Source: Parcubacteria group bacterium LiPW_30
Lineage (GTDB): Bacteria; Patescibacteriota; Minisyncoccia; Phycocordibacterales; VMEP01
NCBI GenBank assembly: GCA_007375595.1
Contig: VMEP01000001.1
Coordinates: 340,694 to 404,693 of the forward strand
DNA length: 64,000 bases
Direction: 5' to 3'
Part shown: in pieces, positions 1,120-63,921 of the stretch
How positions within the stretch are numbered: the first letter of the stretch is position 1
Layout of the letters: the number at the start of each line of letters is the position of its first letter
Made by a program: the position numbers and the translations under genes
Notes under the pieces: generated by a model
Told to the model about the DNA's origin: nothing
The model's database searches: none
What the model saw: the letters and a program-made list of their open reading frames with translations, nothing else

Positions 1120-2607
1120 ATGGCACAACTTTCGCCCGTACGGGCAGGAGAACCGGTTCTTAAAGGCCTCAAGCTTTTGAACCGTGGCAAGGTGCGCGAC
1201 ACCTACGATCTCGGGAGCGGTTATCTACTCTCGGTTGCAACGGACGCAATCAGTATTTTTGATTTCGTTTTGAACGCAAAGGTTCCAGGAAAGGGAATGG
1301 TCTTGACGGCTATGACCCATTTCTGGATGACGAAACTCGAGGAAGCTGGTATCTGCAAGACACATCTCGTCGCCGCGGGTGCCGCAATTGACCACTACCT
1401 CCCGAAAGAGCATCAGGGGAACGTCGACTTGCAGTCTCGGGCGATGGTGGTGAAGCAACTCCAGATGGCTCCGGTCGAGTTCATCGCTCGCGGGTACCTG
1501 ACGGGGACGGCCTTCAAGGAATACCAGAAAACCGGCAAGGTTTTTGGGGTTGCTTTGCCATCTGATCTTCAAGATGGCGACAAGTTGCCGTGCGTTTTTG
1601 ACACTCCGACGACGAAAGAAGTCGAAGGGCACGACATTCCGATGAACAGCGAAGAGGTGCGGGTGAAATATCCCGAGGAAACAAAAACCTTGCTCGCAGT
1701 CTACGAGTTTGTGCGCAAGTTTGCCGAAGAGCACGGCGTCATTTTTGCCGACACCAAACTCGAGTTCGGGTTTGATGAAAAAGGCAACCTTGTCCTCGGC
1801 GACGAAGTGGCCACTCCGGACTCCAGTCGTTTCTGGAGTTTGATGGCATGGATGGCTGAGAAAAAGAAGGAAAAACGTAAGGCGCCATCGCCGTACGACA
1901 AGCAGTTGGTTCGAAACTGGGGAATCGAGGTCGGGGTGAATAATCTTGACCCGCTTTCTTCCGAAGATGTGGAAAAGGTTCACGGGATGGAAGTCCCCAA
2001 AGAGCTGATTACCGCGACTTCGGAGATGTATCGCTACATCTTCTGGTTGCTGACTGGCATGCGCGTTGATTCCTATGTCGCCTCGAAACTGAGGGTCGAC
2101 CGGGAAATACCGGCGCGGAAGCTGGCCGTGGTTTTTGGAAGTAGAAGCGACTACGCAAAGGCGGGAGTACAACTTGCTGTTGCTCAAAAGTACGTTGGGA
2201 ACCGGTTCCTCGGAAAGCTCGACGTTCATGTTTTGAGTTGCCACAGGAACCCGTTGTATCTCGTTGAGTTTGCGGGAAGCGGATGTCTTGGTGCAGATGT
2301 CGTCATCGCCGTCGGCGGAAAGGCATTTGCTTTGCCTGGGGTTCTCGATGCCCATCTTCATGCAGAAGGCTTTAGAATCCCCGTCATTGGTGTTGCTCTC
2401 GGCGAAGAAGGAAGCGAAGAGTTGCTTGCGGCAGAACTCTCGATTTCCCAGATACCAGGGCAGACGGTGCTCATGGACGAAAAGGCTGGTGTTGTCTACC
2501 GCAACACCGACGGCCTTTCAAGGGCTATCGTTCGGGCGACGTTCTCCGAATTGCCACCGATGCTTCCGCGGGTGGAAAAGAAACCGGAGTTTTTTATCAA
2601 GTCTTAA
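1120..2607 (+). CDS. purCE: bifunctional SAICAR synthetase / AIR carboxylase (PurC-PurE fusion, PAICS-like order)
   Basis: N-terminal half matches PurC (KVRDTYDL, LLSVATDAISIFDFVL); C-terminal half matches PurE (VVFGSRSDYA, GGKAFALPGV); region clearly more GC-rich than its surroundings. Confidence 0.8.
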   Translation: MAQLSPVRAGEPVLKGLKLLNRGKVRDTYDLGSGYLLSVATDAISIFDFVLNAKVPGKGMVLTAMTHFWMTKLEEAGICKTHLVAAGAAIDHYLPKEHQGNVDLQSRAMVVKQLQMAPVEFIARGYLTGTAFKEYQKTGKVFGVALPSDLQDGDKLPCVFDTPTTKEVEGHDIPMNSEEVRVKYPEETKTLLAVYEFVRKFAEEHGVIFADTKLEFGFDEKGNLVLGDEVATPDSSRFWSLMAWMAEKKKEKRKAPSPYDKQLVRNWGIEVGVNNLDPLSSEDVEKVHGMEVPKELITATSEMYRYIFWLLTGMRVDSYVASKLRVDREIPARKLAVVFGSRSDYAKAGVQLAVAQKYVGNRFLGKLDVHVLSCHRNPLYLVEFAGSGCLGADVVIAVGGKAFALPGVLDAHLHAEGFRIPVIGVALGEEGSEELLAAELSISQIPGQTVLMDEKAGVVYRNTDGLSRAIVRATFSELPPMLPRVEKKPEFFIKS

Positions 2608-5205: not shown

Positions 5206-5303
5206 CCACCCTTAAAGTGGCCTCGCGAAAGCAGTGCCACTTTTTGTTTTTTTGGATTAGTTAATAGGGGATAATATTATCCTATTTAATTTATAATGTA
5301 AAA

Positions 5304-5753
5304 ATGACTTTATATTTTGCTTACGGTTCAAATCAAGACGAAAATCAAATGAGAGACAGATGTCCTTGTTCTAAACTTATTGGAAAAGCCGTATTGAAAG
5401 ACTATAAGCTTGCTTACACTTTTAAATGTTTAACACACCAAACTGGTTGTGCAGATATTTTAAAAAGTAAAGGAGATGAAGTTTGGGGTTTGTTGTATGA
5501 GGTTTGTGAATGCGACTTAAAAAGACTTGATGGTTTTGAAAAACATCCTGCTGGTTATCGGAGGTTTGCAGTGACTGTTCTAGACGAGTTTGGTAAGGAA
5601 AGAGAAGCGGAGGTTTATGAGGTTGTTTCAAAAATTGAAGGAGATGTCGCCCCATCTCGAAAGTATCACGATATCTTAATTAATGCCTCGGAGAAATATA
5701 ATTTCCCAGAGTCGTATAAAAAATTTCTTAAGTCTTTTAGGGTTGATAAGTAG
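5304..5753 (+). CDS. gamma-glutamyl cyclotransferase-like (AIG2/GGCT family) protein
   Basis: N-terminal YFAYGSNQ signature of the GGCT/AIG2 fold. Confidence 0.6.
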   Translation: MTLYFAYGSNQDENQMRDRCPCSKLIGKAVLKDYKLAYTFKCLTHQTGCADILKSKGDEVWGLLYEVCECDLKRLDGFEKHPAGYRRFAVTVLDEFGKEREAEVYEVVSKIEGDVAPSRKYHDILINASEKYNFPESYKKFLKSFRVDK

Positions 5754-18132: not shown

Positions 18133-18771
18133 ATGGGACAAATCACCATCGACCAATCCCATCAGGTTCTTGCCACTCTGGCTGTGAATACTGACTGGAC
18201 AACGATTGACTTCACGAACTCGGGGCTTCAGGATTTCATCGTTCGCAACCCGAAGGAAGCTGGCAGACAGTTCACGGCGTTCCTCAAGAACGGCGGGAAG
18301 GTCCTCGTCGGCGAACCGAAGGTCATCACCATCAAACGTGGTCGCTTCAATCCAACCGAGTTCATCGGACAGGGCTGGAGCATCATTACGGACGAGACGG
18401 ACACTCGTTCCACGGCGCTCACCGAACTGGACCTCACCAAGATTCAGCAGGTGACGATGCTCAAGAGCGGCGAGACGTACGTGAAGGGCGAGGAGAAGCT
18501 CAGGCGTCTGAAGAAGTCGGGCAACATCCGACTGGACGCCGACGTCTTCCACACGCTGTGGGAGAACCAGCATCTCATCCCCGAGTCGTGGAAGGAGAAG
18601 GTGAACGGGAACACTCGGTTCATCTACTTTGACGGCACGGTCCTTCGGGACTCGGACGGTAGCCGTTACGTTCTGTACCTGTATTGGAGTGACGGTGCGT
18701 GGAACTGGTACGTGGGTTGGCTCGGCAACGACTGGTACGATCACAACCCGTCTGCCGTTCTCGCAAGTTAG
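18133..18771 (+). CDS. hypothetical protein (GC-rich) with a Trp/Tyr-rich C-terminal module
   Basis: SD aaggagaaagaca; C-terminus RYVLYLYWSDGAWNWYVGWLGNDWYDHNPSAVLAS is duplicated at 19128-19253. Confidence 0.5.
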   Translation: MGQITIDQSHQVLATLAVNTDWTTIDFTNSGLQDFIVRNPKEAGRQFTAFLKNGGKVLVGEPKVITIKRGRFNPTEFIGQGWSIITDETDTRSTALTELDLTKIQQVTMLKSGETYVKGEEKLRRLKKSGNIRLDADVFHTLWENQHLIPESWKEKVNGNTRFIYFDGTVLRDSDGSRYVLYLYWSDGAWNWYVGWLGNDWYDHNPSAVLAS

Positions 18772-19111
18772 TACTCGGGCTTTGGTCATTGGCACTTTTT
18801 GGAGCCTTTGACCTTTGTCTTCGGACCCTGCATCTGCTTACACAGATGTGCAGGGTCTTTTCGTATATAAAAATATCTATATAATAATTTGTGGCAGTAG
18901 GTGGATATCAGTGCGTGTTTACGGATGCGTACCACCGAACCCAGTATCCTTATATCCAGAGTATTTGAGATTACGGTTTCAGATAGCGTGGTGTATGTCA
19001 GACACTTCAAAAAATGAAGCTACTTGGTATAGCGTATTAAGGCATTACAATGCCGAAGACAGTGGAACACCCACAGACAACCTTGAGAGTATTCGAGGGG
19101 TGGTGATATGG

Positions 19112-19330
19112 ATGATGTGCTATACAATCCTTCGGAACTCGGACGGTAACCGTTACGTTCTGTACCTGTATTGGAATGACGGTGCGTGGAACTGGAACGT
19201 GAATTGGCTCGACAACGACTGGAACGATAACAACCCGTCTGCCGTTCTCGCAACTCTCTTCATTTCTCTCCGGCTTTCGCTGGAGAGTTTTGTTTTGTGC
19301 GTCTTTAAATTTTTAATATTTGTGTTATAG
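19112..19330 (+). pseudogene. partial duplicate of the C-terminal module of the 18133 gene (fragment or small paralogue)
   Basis: about 125 bp near-identical to 18641-18768, encoding NRYVLYLYWNDGAWNWNVNWLDNDWNDNNPSAVLA; upstream part of the ORF-track reading frame looks non-coding. Confidence 0.3.
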
Positions 19331-19378
19331 TATTTTGGTCTTGAACTGGGCAGTCGCCACGTGAGATAATTGCGCAAT

Positions 19379-19621
19379 ATGTATTACGTATATGTGTTGA
19401 AAGGCCCCAAGCAGTTTTATATAGGTTCCACCAACGATTTAAAAAGGAGATTTGCCGAACATCAATCTAATAAGTCTCTTTCGACGAAAAATCGTGGACC
19501 GTGGAGACTTGTATATTACGAAGCGTCTATATCAAAATCTGACACTTTGATTCGAGAGAATTATTTAAAAACTGCTTGGGGCAGACGATACTTAAAAAAT
19601 CGTATAAAAAATAGTGCATAG
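19379..19621 (+). CDS. small GIY-YIG nuclease-superfamily protein (UPF0213/YhbQ-like) nested in the rnpB P3 loop
   Basis: MYYVYVLKG...FYIGSTNDLKRRFAEHQ...WRLVYYE = GIY-YIG catalytic-domain signature; ORF exactly bounded by the 13-bp inverted repeats that form P3. Confidence 0.75.
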   Translation: MYYVYVLKGPKQFYIGSTNDLKRRFAEHQSNKSLSTKNRGPWRLVYYEASISKSDTLIRENYLKTAWGRRYLKNRIKNSA

Positions 19622-19698
19622 TTATCTCACGTGGAGGAAAGTCCGAACACTTCCGGTCTAACCTTTGGGCGACCGGAGAAGGGTAGCGGGTAACGCCC

Positions 19699-19760
19699 GT
19701 CGTCCAGCACTTATTTTGTAGTTTGGAAACTTCTAAGTTGCAAAATAAGTGCTGGATAGA
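19699..19760 (+). repeat. 62-nt hairpin repeat copy 1 (in rnpB P12 position)
   Basis: gtcgtccagcacttattttgtagtttggaaacttctaagttgcaaaataagtgctggataga; 15-bp perfect stem. Confidence 0.7.
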
Positions 19761-20010
19761 GGTGCGAGCAGTGACGTCGATGCCGAAAGGCTAGACCTCC
19801 CACGTGGAGGAATCCCATAGAAATATGGGAGTGAAACGGCTAAATCCTTACTTAAGTGCAAGGCCGTGCCCCGTGGGATAAAAGATTCCGATTTTATTAA
19901 TAATACCCTGTTAATTTACAGTTTCAGTATTGTTACGTAGTTCGGAATTTGTTATCCCATGGGGAGTGCCGCTTGAGCCCGTGAGTAATCACGGGCCTAG
20001 ATAAATGACT

Positions 20011-20072
20011 GTCGTCCAGCACTTATTTTGTCATTTGGAATCTTCTAAGTTGCAAAATAAGTGCTGGATACA
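20011..20072 (+). repeat. 62-nt hairpin repeat copy 2 (between rnpB P2 3' and P4 3' strands)
   Basis: copy 1 and copy 2 differ only at about 4 loop positions. Confidence 0.7.
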
Positions 20073-20100
20073 GAATTCGGCTTATAAGTTCAGGACAAGC

Positions 20101-20130
20101 AAAAAAGCCCTAATATTTAGGGCTTTTTTG
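20101..20130 (+). terminator. Rho-independent terminator of rnpB
   Basis: aaaaaagccctaatatttagggcttttttg. Confidence 0.65.
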
Positions 20131-20230
20131 CTTGTCCACTTTTTATCAACCGATAAAATTGTGTGTTATTAGAAATTTCTTATATAATACGGAGCACTTA
20201 ATTAATAAATTTTTAACAAACTTTCATTTC

Positions 20231-28012: not shown

Positions 28013-28081
28013 GCGAGTATAGTTTAGTGGTAGAATGACTGCTTCCCAAGCAGTAGATCGGAGTTCGATTCTCCGTACTCG
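28013..28081 (+). tRNA. tRNA-Trp (anticodon CCA)
   Basis: cloverleaf: acceptor GCGAGTA/TACTCGC, anticodon loop TCCCAAG, T-loop GGAGTTCGATTCTCC. Confidence 0.85.
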
Positions 28082-28089
28082 CACATTAT

Positions 28090-28870: not shown

Positions 28871-28924
28871 ACCATGTAAAAACACTCACTTATGTGAGTG
28901 TTTTTACATGGTGCCCTCGGCAGG
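28866..28924. terminator. 22-bp palindromic hairpin incorporating the tRNA-Arg 3' end
   Basis: ggcaccatgtaaaaacactcac ttat gtgagtgtttttacatggtgcc. Confidence 0.6.
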
Positions 28925-28985
28925 AATCGAACCCACAATTACCCCTTAGGACGGGGTAGTTATATCCATTTAACTACGAGGGCGC
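28909..28985 (-). tRNA. tRNA-Arg (anticodon CCT), CCA encoded
   Basis: acceptor GCCCTCG/CGAGGGC, anticodon loop GTCCTAA, T-loop TTCGATT; the T-stem has two G.U pairs. Confidence 0.7.
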
Positions 28986-29978: not shown

Positions 29979-30051
29979 GCCGAGGTAGCTCAGTTGGTAG
30001 AGCATTTCCCTGAAGAGGAAGGGGTCGCCGGTTCAAATCCGGCCCTCGGCA
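29979..30051 (+). tRNA. tRNA-Phe (anticodon GAA)
   Basis: GCCGAGGTAGCTCAGTTGGTAGAGC...CTGAAGA anticodon loop...GGTTCAAATCCGGCCCTCGGCA. Confidence 0.85.
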
Positions 30052-37250: not shown

Positions 37251-37323
37251 TGCGCGATAGAGGAGTCGAACCTCTGACCTACCCCACGTCAAGGGGTCGC
37301 TCTACCAACTGAGCTAACCGCGC
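37251..37323 (-). tRNA. tRNA-Val (anticodon GAC)
   Basis: revcomp GCGCGGTTAGCTCAGTTGGTAGAGC..CTTGACG anticodon loop..GGTTCGACTCC..ATCGCGCA. Confidence 0.8.
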
Positions 37324-39531: not shown

Positions 39532-39618
39532 CGGAGATGGGAGGATTCGAACCTCCGATGAGGTTACCCCCATGCCTGATTTCGAGTCAGGTGCCTTCAA
39601 CCGCTCAGCCACATCTCC
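39532..39618 (-). tRNA. tRNA-Ser (anticodon CGA), class II with long variable arm
   Basis: revcomp GGAGATGTGGCTGAGCGGTTGAAGGC..CTCGAAA anticodon loop..long variable arm..GGTTCGAATCCTCCCATCTCCG. Confidence 0.8.
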
Positions 39619-39747: not shown

Positions 39748-39819
39748 GGCCCTATCGTCTAACGGTTAGGACACAAGCTTTTCAAGCTTGGAACCAGGGT
39801 TCGATTCCCTGTAGGGTCA
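39748..39819 (+). tRNA. tRNA-Glu (anticodon TTC)
   Basis: GGCCCTATCGTCTAACGGTTAGGAC..CAAGCTTTTCAAGCTTG..GGTTCGATTCCCTGTAGGGTCA. Confidence 0.8.
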
Positions 39820-63836: not shown

Positions 63837-63921
63837 TGGTGCTGGAGGGGAGACTCGAACTCCCAAGCCTTGCGGCACTAGTTCCTAAGACTAGCGCGTA
63901 TACCAATTCCGCCACTCCAGC
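63837..63921 (-). tRNA. tRNA-Leu (anticodon TAG), class II, CCA encoded
   Basis: revcomp GCTGGAGTGGCGGAATTGGTA..CTTAGGA anticodon loop..long variable arm..GGGAGTTCGAGTCTCCCCTCCAGCACCA. Confidence 0.8.

Follow-up and report, generated by a model that had tools for sequence, protein, structure and literature searches.

A GIY-YIG reading frame inside an RNase P RNA gene

The stretch of DNA analysed here, termed the window throughout, comprises 64,000 nucleotides of contig VMEP01000001.1 (positions 340,694 to 404,693, forward strand) from Parcubacteria group bacterium LiPW_30 (GenBank assembly GCA_007375595.1), and coordinates given without a locus identifier are window positions. A type-A RNase P RNA gene (rnpB) spans 19338-20096 of the plus strand and carries, at the tip of helix P3, an open reading frame (ORF) for a single-domain GIY-YIG nuclease (Table 1). 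RNase P RNA is an essential, tRNA-processing molecule and one of the few universal ribozymes, and its P3 helix tolerates expansion. Despite the nested ORF the blocks of the catalytic core are intact: both P4 strands (AGGAAAGUCC and ACAGAAnnCGGCUUA), the P8 hairpin (GGUAACGCC) and the J18/2 sequence (AGAUAAAUG, 19999-20007) are present, and these universal blocks are invariant in 43 related loci. P3 is formed by a perfect 13-nt inverted repeat (CCACGTGAGATAA/TTATCTCACGTGG; 16 contiguous pairs when G-U is allowed), and the ORF accounts for 243 of the 252 nt between its two arms. P2 and the 5' arm are one base apart, and J3/4 begins directly after the 3' arm. Upstream, the promoter-like site of rnpB ends at 19331, six or seven bases 5' of P1, and the start predicted from it (about 19337-19338) is the first base of P1.

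Most of this layout had been anticipated in the original prediction, which was made from the letters of the sequence and a list of its reading frames. All the rnpB blocks that it named on the plus strand are there, as are the 80-amino-acid (aa) GIY-YIG ORF at 19379-19621 and the 13-bp inverted repeat that brackets it and closes P3 just before the P4 strand. Three positions needed adjustment: P1 starts at 19338 and not at 19337, the 5' strand of P4 at 19635 and not at 19634, and the terminator, which does exist, lies at 20093-20137 rather than at 20101-20130. The RNA had also been called otherwise intact, which holds for the core but not for its periphery, where further insertions are found: a hairpin at 19869-19964 and two 56-nt hairpins, both discussed below.

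Searched at the gathering score, Rfam reported tRNAs only and no RNase P RNA in the window. With relaxed filters the RNase P model RF00010 matched 19575-20092 (50.7 bits, E-value 1.7e-14), short of its gathering score of 100, and this was the sole RNase P match in the 64 kb. The alignment starts inside the ORF and assembles a poor, mismatched P1-P3 from the last 50 nt of the coding sequence, because the model cannot pay for a 265-nt insertion. Pairing across the ORF was measured in fixed-register segments around conserved anchors, using 22 distinct related loci with an ORF-sized insert. P1, P2 and P3 taken together contain 91.5% standard pairs; shifting the 3' partners by one to three columns lowers this share to 33-45%. 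Double changes occur in 19 of the 30 pairs, and the observed covariation score was reached by none of 500 shuffles. Compensatory changes affect nine of the ten pairs of P1 (84% of cells paired), all seven pairs of P2 (97.4% of cells paired) and three of the 13 pairs of P3. The two strands of P2 are wholly different between genomes yet complementary within each (GACGATC/GATCGTC, GATAGAT/ATCTATC, GCAACA/TGTTGC, GGCGACC/GGTCGTC); P1 sequences also differ wholly between genomes, their strands still being complementary, and the arms of P3 show compensatory variants among relatives (CCCC/GGGG versus CCAC/GTGG; GAGAT/ATCTC versus GGGAT/ATCCC). In ORF-less relatives with a short P3 loop RF00010 scores 101-136 bits over the full model and takes as P3 exactly the hairpin that brackets the ORF, preceded by P1 and P2. 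The pairing of P1 and P2 across the ORF places it within the structural unit of rnpB. The proposal that the 5' partners of P1 and P2 lie upstream of the ORF, with P1-P3 closing around it, is thereby borne out; the covariance-model search suggested along with it returned a match beginning at 19575, within the ORF, and the upstream partners covary.

The low score of 50.7 bits against a threshold of 100 could be taken as the mark of a mis-assembly or of a dead rnpB copy. This explanation is effectively refuted. The 841 nt from promoter to terminator are 100% identical in three independent assemblies (Logan SRR8863432, the 364-kb contig ENA ERZ27284382 and JGI 3300001199), whose contigs also encode a 100% identical GIY-YIG protein, and the locus is therefore no assembly artefact. 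In addition, the nested architecture recurs in more than 40 distinct loci in which compensatory changes keep P1-P3, and the core blocks are invariant. RNase P RNAs of the Candidate Phyla Radiation (CPR) usually score below the Rfam threshold (Lui, Nielsen and Arkin 2021, PMC8172020). Like the gene described here, the RNAs in that survey have large helix extensions and needed manual refolding; unlike it, they have extended or missing helices and no protein-coding gene within the RNA.

The product of the nested ORF, 80 aa long, is a GIY-YIG domain and nothing else (Pfam PF01541, E-value 1.8e-13, 51 bits against a cut-off of 22.6). A protein search recovered 388 homologues, mostly of 80 aa; the best 120 are 65-100% identical to it and almost all 80 aa long, and the sources named among these 120 are Lloydbacteria, Zambryskibacteria, Kaiserbacteria, Paceibacterota and Parcubacteria. 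In 34 aligned homologues, Y3, Y5, Y14, G16, R24, H28, E48, R59, E60 and the motif YLKTAWG are invariant, and PKQFY, STKNRGPW and REKYLKTAWG are conserved motifs of the family. In 21 distinct nested coding sequences the median proportions of nonsynonymous (pN) and synonymous (pS) differences are 0.19 and 0.76, and the ratio of the corresponding substitution rates (dN/dS) is about 0.11 over 83 unsaturated pairs. Judged by this pattern of substitution, the nested ORF is a real gene under purifying selection. An AlphaFold2 model (predicted local distance difference test score 92) has the beta-beta-beta-alpha-beta-alpha-alpha topology of GIY-YIG domains, and the closest solved structures in a fold match are the UPF0213 protein BH0048 (1zg2; 34% identity in the fold match, profile E-value 1.8e-8) and Slx1 (7cq3); the Protein Data Bank holds none closer. 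UPF0213/YhbQ-type and SLX1 domains are thus nearest to the protein in both structure and sequence, and the family treated here differs from UPF0213 by its own motifs and its associated hairpin; we know of no UPF0213 members that are bracketed by hairpins. NCBIfam gave a weak, sub-threshold match to a group-I-intron-endonuclease family, and a tblastn search against plasmids gave one uninformative match.

Table 1. Parts of the rnpB locus in the window, with the generic form of the hairpin that brackets the ORF.
Feature	Position	Strand	Basis or remark
Promoter-like site for rnpB (TTTAAA, 16 nt, TG-n-TATAGT)	19304-19331	+	consensus scan only
P1, 5' strand GTCTTGAACT	19338-19347	+	pairs with AGTTCAGGAC at 20087-20096; 10 bp, one G-U
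P2, 5' strand GGCAGTC	19349-19355	+	partner GACTGTC at 20007-20013
P3, 5' strand CCACGTGAGATAA (5' arm of the cassette inverted repeat)	19357-19369	+	holds the -10-like TGaGATAAT
5' untranslated region (UTR) of the ORF	19370-19378	+	with A and U of AUG, pairs with 19605-19621 (last codon, stop and bases after)
80-aa single-domain GIY-YIG nuclease ORF (MYYVYVLKGPKQFYIGSTNDLKRRF...)	19379-19621	+	Pfam PF01541
Stem inside the ORF, 5' arm GCCCCAAGCAGTTTT (codons for GPKQF)	19404-19418	+	pairs with 19568-19582
Stem inside the ORF, 3' arm AAAACTGCTTGGGGC (codons for KTAWG)	19568-19582	+	repeat search, codon usage, consensus fold
P3, 3' strand TTATCTCACGTGG (3' arm of the cassette inverted repeat)	19622-19634	+	abuts the P4 strand segment directly
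J3/4 and P4, 5' strand AGGAAAGTCCGAAC	19635-19648	+	RF00010 alignment; invariant in all related loci
Helices P5-P18, specificity and catalytic domains	19649-20006	+	RF00010 alignments, repeats, half-site scan; assignment of the middle helices approximate, as RF00010 aligns the region poorly
P8 hairpin CGGGTAACGCCCG	19687-19699	+	RF00010 alignment
Extended P9 hairpin	19702-19757	+	repeat search
P15 GCAAGGCC	19858-19865	+	RF00010 alignment
Second cassette-type hairpin, at P16/17	19869-19964	+	repeat and half-site scan
P18	19977-19996	+	
J18/2 sequence AGATAAAT	within 19649-20006	+	
P2, 3' strand GACTGTC	20007-20013	+	covariation with 19349-19355
Hairpin at the P19 position	20014-20069	+	95% identical copy of the P9 extension 19702-19757
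P4, 3' strand ACAGAATTCGGCTTA	20070-20084	+	RF00010 alignment
P1, 3' strand AGTTCAGGAC	20087-20096	+	P1 also recovered by unconstrained fold of the 759-nt RNA
Intrinsic terminator-like hairpin, then T run	20093-20137	+	
Cassette hairpin, generic form CCCCGTGAGAT-loop-ATCTCACGGGG			

The hairpin-bracketed cassette and its relatives

A scan of species-representative genomes yielded 440 loci encoding relatives of the protein, and the best 80 of these were examined. Calling a copy nested when the 3' repeat arm is directly followed by AGGAAAGTCC, we found the ORF nested in rnpB at 16 of the 80 (L006-L015, L017, L018, L021, L023-L025); a Zambryskibacteria contig fetched separately (L004) has the same nested layout and the same downstream TPR gene as the window. 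At about two thirds of the 64 non-nested loci the homologue is bracketed by the same arms, in the form CCCCGTGAGATA ... TATCTCACGGGG, often followed by T(G/A)AA, or with the variant CGTTAGAT. In Lloydbacteria (L001) and in Parcubacteria Gr01-1014_8 (L005 and L016), for example, a homologous ORF lies between the arms CCCGTGAGATAA ... TATCTCAYGGGG with no RNase P sequence after it. Bracketed non-nested loci come from Verrucomicrobiota, Ignavibacteria, KSB1, Elusimicrobiota, Planctomycetes, metagenome-assembled genomes labelled Bacteroidetes, Peregrinibacteria and others, and solo hairpins often adjoin them. No Rfam family overlaps the cassette at 20 non-nested Patescibacteria loci. At two loci in Patescibacteria (L031, 995-1402; L033, 481-882) the non-nested cassette lies less than about 600 nt from a tmRNA gene and outside it.

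Since homologous ORFs from many phyla lie between the same arms without being in rnpB, comparison of these loci indicates that the P3 stem is the terminal inverted repeat of a discrete GIY-YIG cassette (arm, gene, arm). The idea that a nuclease gene had invaded P3 is to be modified accordingly in one respect: the ORF does lie in P3, but the inverted repeat belongs to the cassette and is not the native P3. On sequence comparison we consider it likely that window 19338-20096 is the working RNase P RNA gene of an ultra-small bacterium of the Patescibacteria (Paceibacteria/Parcubacteria type) in which the terminal repeat of the cassette serves as P3. An intron was also considered as the nature of the insert and rejected: no group I or group II model matched within 19250-20200 even at an E-value of 10 or below, and there is no room for a ribozyme core.

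The closest architectural parallel is provided by the Ssn family (cd10448). With about 94 aa and GIY-YIG as their only domain, Ssn enzymes cleave single-stranded DNA (ssDNA) beside a hairpin repeat, NTS/SRM, copies of which lie on either side of the ssn gene and at sites dispersed over the genome (Chenal et al. 2025, Nat Commun; PMC11893778). Small single-domain GIY-YIG proteins (about 80-94 aa), hairpin-forming flanks, solo copies nearby and occurrence in many phyla are common to both systems. They differ in four respects. The hairpin sequences are not the same; the flanks of the cassette are the two halves of one hairpin, where Ssn has a complete hairpin on each side; the cassette hairpin is concentrated in one RNA gene, unlike the Ssn repeat, which is dispersed in hundreds of copies; and Ssn genes are not known to occur within genes for structural RNAs. 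The dispersed copies that characterise the Ssn family have no counterpart in the window, where two hairpins were found in 64 kb, both of them in rnpB. The likeness is one of architecture (size and flanking hairpins).

The authors of the Ssn study noted that NTS-ssnA-NTS looks like an insertion sequence (IS) and drew an analogy with repetitive extragenic palindromes and their associated tyrosine transposases (REP/RAYT), for which action on ssDNA hairpins has been proposed (discussion in PMC11893778). The cassette shares with REP/RAYT systems (REPtrons) and with IS200/IS605 elements a nuclease gene between inverted, hairpin-forming repeats and solo repeats elsewhere; it differs from them in having a GIY-YIG enzyme instead of an HUH Y1 enzyme, and the cassette is not known to transpose. 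In L004 a Y1_Tnp gene of the IS200/RAYT type (1341-1970, minus strand) lies about 170 nt upstream of the nested rnpB, on the opposite strand; this may be a coincidence, and such enzymes also act on hairpin repeats. The cassette is best described as a mobile-element-like, Ssn-like hairpin-bracketed GIY-YIG unit that has been taken in as P3 of RNase P RNA in a Paceibacteria-type lineage, where dozens of related genomes share it.

The hairpin is not limited to P3. The second copy in the window, at P16/17, consists of CCCCGTGGGATAA, an AT-rich loop of about 70 nt and TTATCCCATGGGG; it contains no ORF, and the same position is also filled in L012 and L104. Cassette half-sites occur in the 64 kb only in these two rnpB hairpins. 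Across the clade the stem occupies up to five sites in rnpB (P3, a P5.1-like helix, P12, P16/17 and the P19 position), with short GC-rich stems or modules of about 70 nt as loops. In 49 distinct loci (L004-L025 and L086-L147) we counted 160 half-sites in 36 kb of rnpB and 11 in 262 kb of flanking DNA, a density about 41-fold higher in rnpB once the ascertained P3 pair is removed. This concentration hints at a role at the RNA level. Alternatively, the helix tips of rnpB may be the only tolerated or targeted sites, for instance if heavy transcription of a structured gene leaves hairpins on its non-template strand open to attack by an ssDNA nuclease.

Several related elements were seen in or near these genes. 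Modules of about 95 nt, similar to the ORF-less hairpin at 19869-19964 and with the shared subterminal motifs GATAAGAG.TTCGGA ... TCGGA..T.TTATC, cap other rnpB helices in L009, L011, L104 and L147; together they resemble a family of non-autonomous derivatives. A few half-site copies outside rnpB, in apparently non-coding DNA, are present in L086 (about 1255-1345, identical to L097, about 5283-5373) and L147 (about 435-530). In the window the 56-nt hairpins at 19702-19757 (the P9 extension) and 20014-20069 (the P19 position, between the 3' strands of P2 and P4) are 95% identical to each other and have no third copy in the 64 kb; at the P19 position of L004 the hairpin is instead a copy of that genome's own P12-position hairpin. 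The source of the P19 insert thus seems, in each lineage, to be some other helix of the same RNA.

Descent and decay of the nested ORF

A metagenome scan for the P3/P4 junction with the 21-nt pattern ATCYCACGKGG-AGGAAAGTCC retrieved 62 loci. Seven matches from the human gut (L091, L093, L098, L099, L109, L117 and L133) were discarded, as they fall inside a large protein-coding gene whose translation reads ...GWSISGLPSISRGGKS... and match the pattern by chance; the remaining 55 are rnpB. The nested ORF is intact, with 80-82 aa, in 18 of the 55. A full-length insert with a broken ORF (23, 62 or 8 codons) is present in four, a clean internal deletion that fuses the first codons to the last in six, and a loop of 0-42 nt on the same stem in 27. 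Five of the deletion remnants (L086, L088, L097, L120 and L123) have a 49-nt loop reading MYYVY-RLKNSI-stop and derive from an allele of the L015/L089 type; the sixth (L134) has a 28-nt loop and derives from one of the L011/L024 type. L096, L103, L112 and L145 are frameshifted full-length copies, and the decay states can be traced to different intact relatives. On this evidence the nested ORF has decayed independently several times. P3 retains the stem in relatives whose ORF is broken, deleted or absent, so RNase P can evidently do without the GIY-YIG protein. The search for the same nested ORF in related genomes, which had been suggested at the outset, has thus found it intact both in genome assemblies and in metagenomes.

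In a neighbour-joining tree the nested proteins form one clade, save for the divergent pair L131/L139, and their sisters are non-nested Parcubacteria cassettes. Two members of the clade that had been labelled non-nested, L021 and L142, are actually nested read-through ORFs. The proteins of L131/L139 have 82 aa and a strongly divergent N-terminal half (SLKDNNLYTG for GPKQFYIG) joined to a typical C-terminal half, and the 5' arm of the ORF-internal stem has been lost in both loci; recombination or relaxed constraint may account for this. We infer that the cassette was captured once, anciently, at P3 in an ancestor of the clade and that descent from then on was mainly vertical, the gene decaying repeatedly.

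Active homing would leave a different history: the nuclease would cut insert-free rnpB or a solo-hairpin P3, the ORF would spread horizontally through repair, and rnpB would be invaded again and again. ORF-less alleles with exactly the same stem do exist as possible targets, gain, decay and loss states coexist as they do in the cycle of homing endonucleases, and the one nested pair L131/L139 is highly divergent. We nevertheless think this scenario quite improbable, as the nested copies are essentially one clade and P1 and P2 have fully diverged between hosts, which fits long vertical descent; there is moreover no intron or intein vehicle, and the same family occupies many unrelated sites in other genomes. 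The suggestion of a homing-endonuclease-like gene in the original prediction is accordingly correct as to the GIY-YIG gene, and homing itself is not established.

ORF-bearing insertions are already known from other structural RNA genes of the same lineage. In CPR rRNA genes such insertions are located at stem-loop tips or bases; they mostly encode LAGLIDADG enzymes, include a few with GIY-YIG proteins judged not to spread by homing, and show ORF degeneration, and the 23S_rRNA_IVP family is also mentioned (Tsurumaki et al. 2024, PMC11270868). The tRNA genes of Patescibacteria often contain group I introns (PMC13011429). The rnpB insert resembles the rRNA-gene insertions in lineage, in bearing an ORF at a stem-loop tip of an essential RNA gene and in losing that ORF while the flanks are conserved. 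It differs in its host gene, rnpB, which those surveys do not mention (PMC11270868, PMC13011429), in having no intron core and being held by a helix that is its own inverted repeat, and in encoding a GIY-YIG enzyme where LAGLIDADG enzymes dominate. No rnpB with a nested ORF was found in the literature we searched, a library of limited scope that leaves out most subscription journals and in which rnpB or RNase P RNA combined with GIY-YIG, homing or CPR gave mitochondrial-genome papers only; this agrees with the original prediction, whose author knew of no rnpB with a protein-coding insertion.

Folding, expression and significance of the nested gene

The 278-nt insert folds with -95.8 kcal/mol in the sense orientation (z = -9.7) and -77.0 kcal/mol in the antisense orientation (z = -5.8), an asymmetry that is expected if G-U pairs have been selected in the transcript. 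A consensus fold of 14 nested inserts (RNAalifold) keeps the outer stem, an 11-bp extension of it and the 15-bp stem inside the ORF. In the extension the 5'UTR and the first two bases of the AUG are base-paired to a segment that consists of the last sense codon, the stop codon and the bases that follow; pairs 17-19/260-262 show seven, five and nine double changes among the 14 loci, and the pairing is also seen as a 30-nt inverted repeat with 80% complementarity. The C-terminal residue of the protein is variable because the last codon covaries with the 5'UTR. The internal stem joins codons 9-14 to codons 63-68 through a 15-nt repeat that is 100% complementary, and codon usage is strongly skewed there compared with the same amino acids elsewhere in these genes: Lys11 is AAG in 32 of 33 sequences (31% elsewhere), Pro10 is CCC in 28 of 33 (2 of 38), Thr65 is ACT in 30 of 33 (18 of 103) and Ala66 is GCT in all 33 (32 of 101). 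As this skew indicates, the internal stem is maintained through codon choice and synonymous sites are constrained. The full 759-nt RNA folds with -318 kcal/mol (z = -25), P1 and the rod being recovered without constraints. The fold energies and covariation show that the insert RNA is selected to fold as a closed rod joining its own ends and sequestering the 5'UTR and the AUG.

Selection on the RNA could also mean that the protein binds the hairpin as RNA and acts as a lineage-specific accessory factor or chaperone of RNase P, or as an autoregulator, rather than as a selfish DNA nuclease. The better folding of the sense strand, which points to RNA-level selection, the strong conservation of the protein and the concentration of half-sites in rnpB, both across the 49 loci and in the window, where they occur nowhere else, speak for such a partnership. 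Against it stand the many relatives that keep hairpins though the rnpB ORF is lost or broken, the presence of the same cassette outside any recognised RNA gene in other genomes and the conservation of the catalytic residues of the nuclease; the one characterised Ssn enzyme neither bound nor cut RNA (PMC11893778). We regard a partnership of this kind as unlikely, about as much so as active homing.

The gene upstream of rnpB has its own terminator at 19266-19287. Since this terminator precedes the promoter-like site of rnpB, rnpB with its nested ORF is probably a transcription unit of its own. Transcription would run from the rnpB promoter through the ORF to the rnpB terminator. Because the folded RNA has its AUG base-paired and shows no Shine-Dalgarno sequence, translation is proposed to take place on the nascent RNA: ribosomes would load before the 3' arm, about 250 nt downstream, has been made, and closure of the rod would then end translation and complete P3. 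By analogy with the Ssn nucleases the protein probably recognises its own hairpin as ssDNA, which might explain how the stem reached other helix tips.

A second promoter-like site, at 19341-19370, has its -10 element TGaGATAAT in the 5' arm, 8 nt upstream of the AUG, and a leaderless mRNA might arise from it in this genome. Many cassette arms contain the hexamer, at a distance from the AUG that varies between genomes. An internal promoter was rejected as a general source of leaderless mRNA, the AUG lying 2-3 nt past the hexamer in L147, L015 and L089 and the last T of the hexamer being variable.

After transcription the insert might be cut out in the manner of an intervening sequence. An RNase III-like cleavage in the P3 duplex, not followed by religation, would release a small mRNA and leave an RNase P RNA in two pieces, of about 30 nt (5') and about 470 nt (3'), joined through P1, P2 and what remains of P3. 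In Salmonella and Leptospira, for example, 23S rRNA carries intervening sequences whose excision by RNase III leaves it fragmented. These sequences are likewise extra elements with a long duplex that are tolerated at a helix tip of an essential RNA, some of them with small ORFs, and they differ from the rnpB insert in that excision is established for them and is a proposal here. The rRNA insertions of CPR bacteria are said to have been found absent from the mature rRNA by Brown and colleagues in 2015, and to our knowledge no naturally fragmented bacterial RNase P RNA has been reported. P3 and its extension together make about 23 nearly continuous base pairs, conserved by covariation, and a duplex of that length is a typical RNase III substrate; the strong maintenance of P1 and P2 is what a two-piece molecule would need, and a cut would free the otherwise sequestered AUG. 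The position of CPR rRNA-gene insertions at the tips or bases of stem-loops (PMC11270868) points the same way. A rod selected through the whole ORF, however, makes better sense for an insert that remains attached and has to leave the folding of the ribozyme undisturbed, and the same stems carry, in relatives, loops of 28-49 nt and of about 70 nt that look like retained helices. Excision is therefore a possibility that we take seriously while holding it to be less probable than retention, and we lean slightly towards a mature ribozyme that keeps the rod as a large P3 extension.

Put together, these elements would describe the rnpB transcript as a bifunctional RNA, being the sole messenger of the nuclease, translated while nascent, and then the ribozyme, with the hairpin at up to five helix tips and with nuclease and RNase P RNA as a coevolving RNA-protein or DNA-protein pair rather than passenger and host. 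We advance this combined scheme tentatively and consider it rather unlikely to be right as a whole. Several observations weigh against the main account given above, of an Ssn-like cassette captured at P3 and translated from the rnpB transcript. With the AUG paired in the folded RNA and no evident Shine-Dalgarno sequence, translation would depend on a kinetic window or on processing, either of which is speculative. In these genomes the hairpin occurs almost exclusively in rnpB, a concentration that a purely selfish DNA repeat does not predict, and the published SRM pattern matches the canonical NTS and none of the cassette hairpins. The evidence for a single origin and vertical descent is a neighbour-joining tree of a protein of 80 aa, with which some homing is compatible, and the nested pair L131/L139 is very divergent in its N-terminal half.

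The surroundings of rnpB contain two tandem ORFs on the plus strand (18133-18771 and 18815-19330) without a Pfam match and with a shared C-terminal motif of about 40 aa (DG.RYVLYLYW.DGAWNW.V.WL.NDW.D.NPSAVLA); the listed start and end of the second are doubtful because the terminator-like hairpin 19266-19287 lies inside it. Seven tRNA genes were found (28013-28083, 28912-28983, 29979-30051, 37251-37323, 39532-39618, 39748-39819 and 63840-63921), and apart from these and rnpB the window has no Rfam family at an E-value of 0.001.

Going by the literature searched, what is new in these results is a protein gene inside a bacterial rnpB; pairs of a nuclease and a hairpin, and ORF-bearing insertions in structural RNA genes of CPR bacteria, are kinds already known. 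A nested insert explains why rnpB may be missed or truncated in covariance-model annotation, and this affects CPR completeness checks that rely on rnpB. The recently described Ssn-type pairing of a nuclease with a hairpin now takes in a further hairpin, additional phyla and a new niche, the helix tips of a structural RNA gene. The clade supplies natural alleles in every state (intact ORF, broken ORF, deletion remnant and bare hairpin), and with these alleles it becomes testable how large a load of foreign RNA a ribozyme helix can carry, whether one transcript may serve as both messenger and catalyst, and whether a bacterial RNase P RNA may exist in two pieces.

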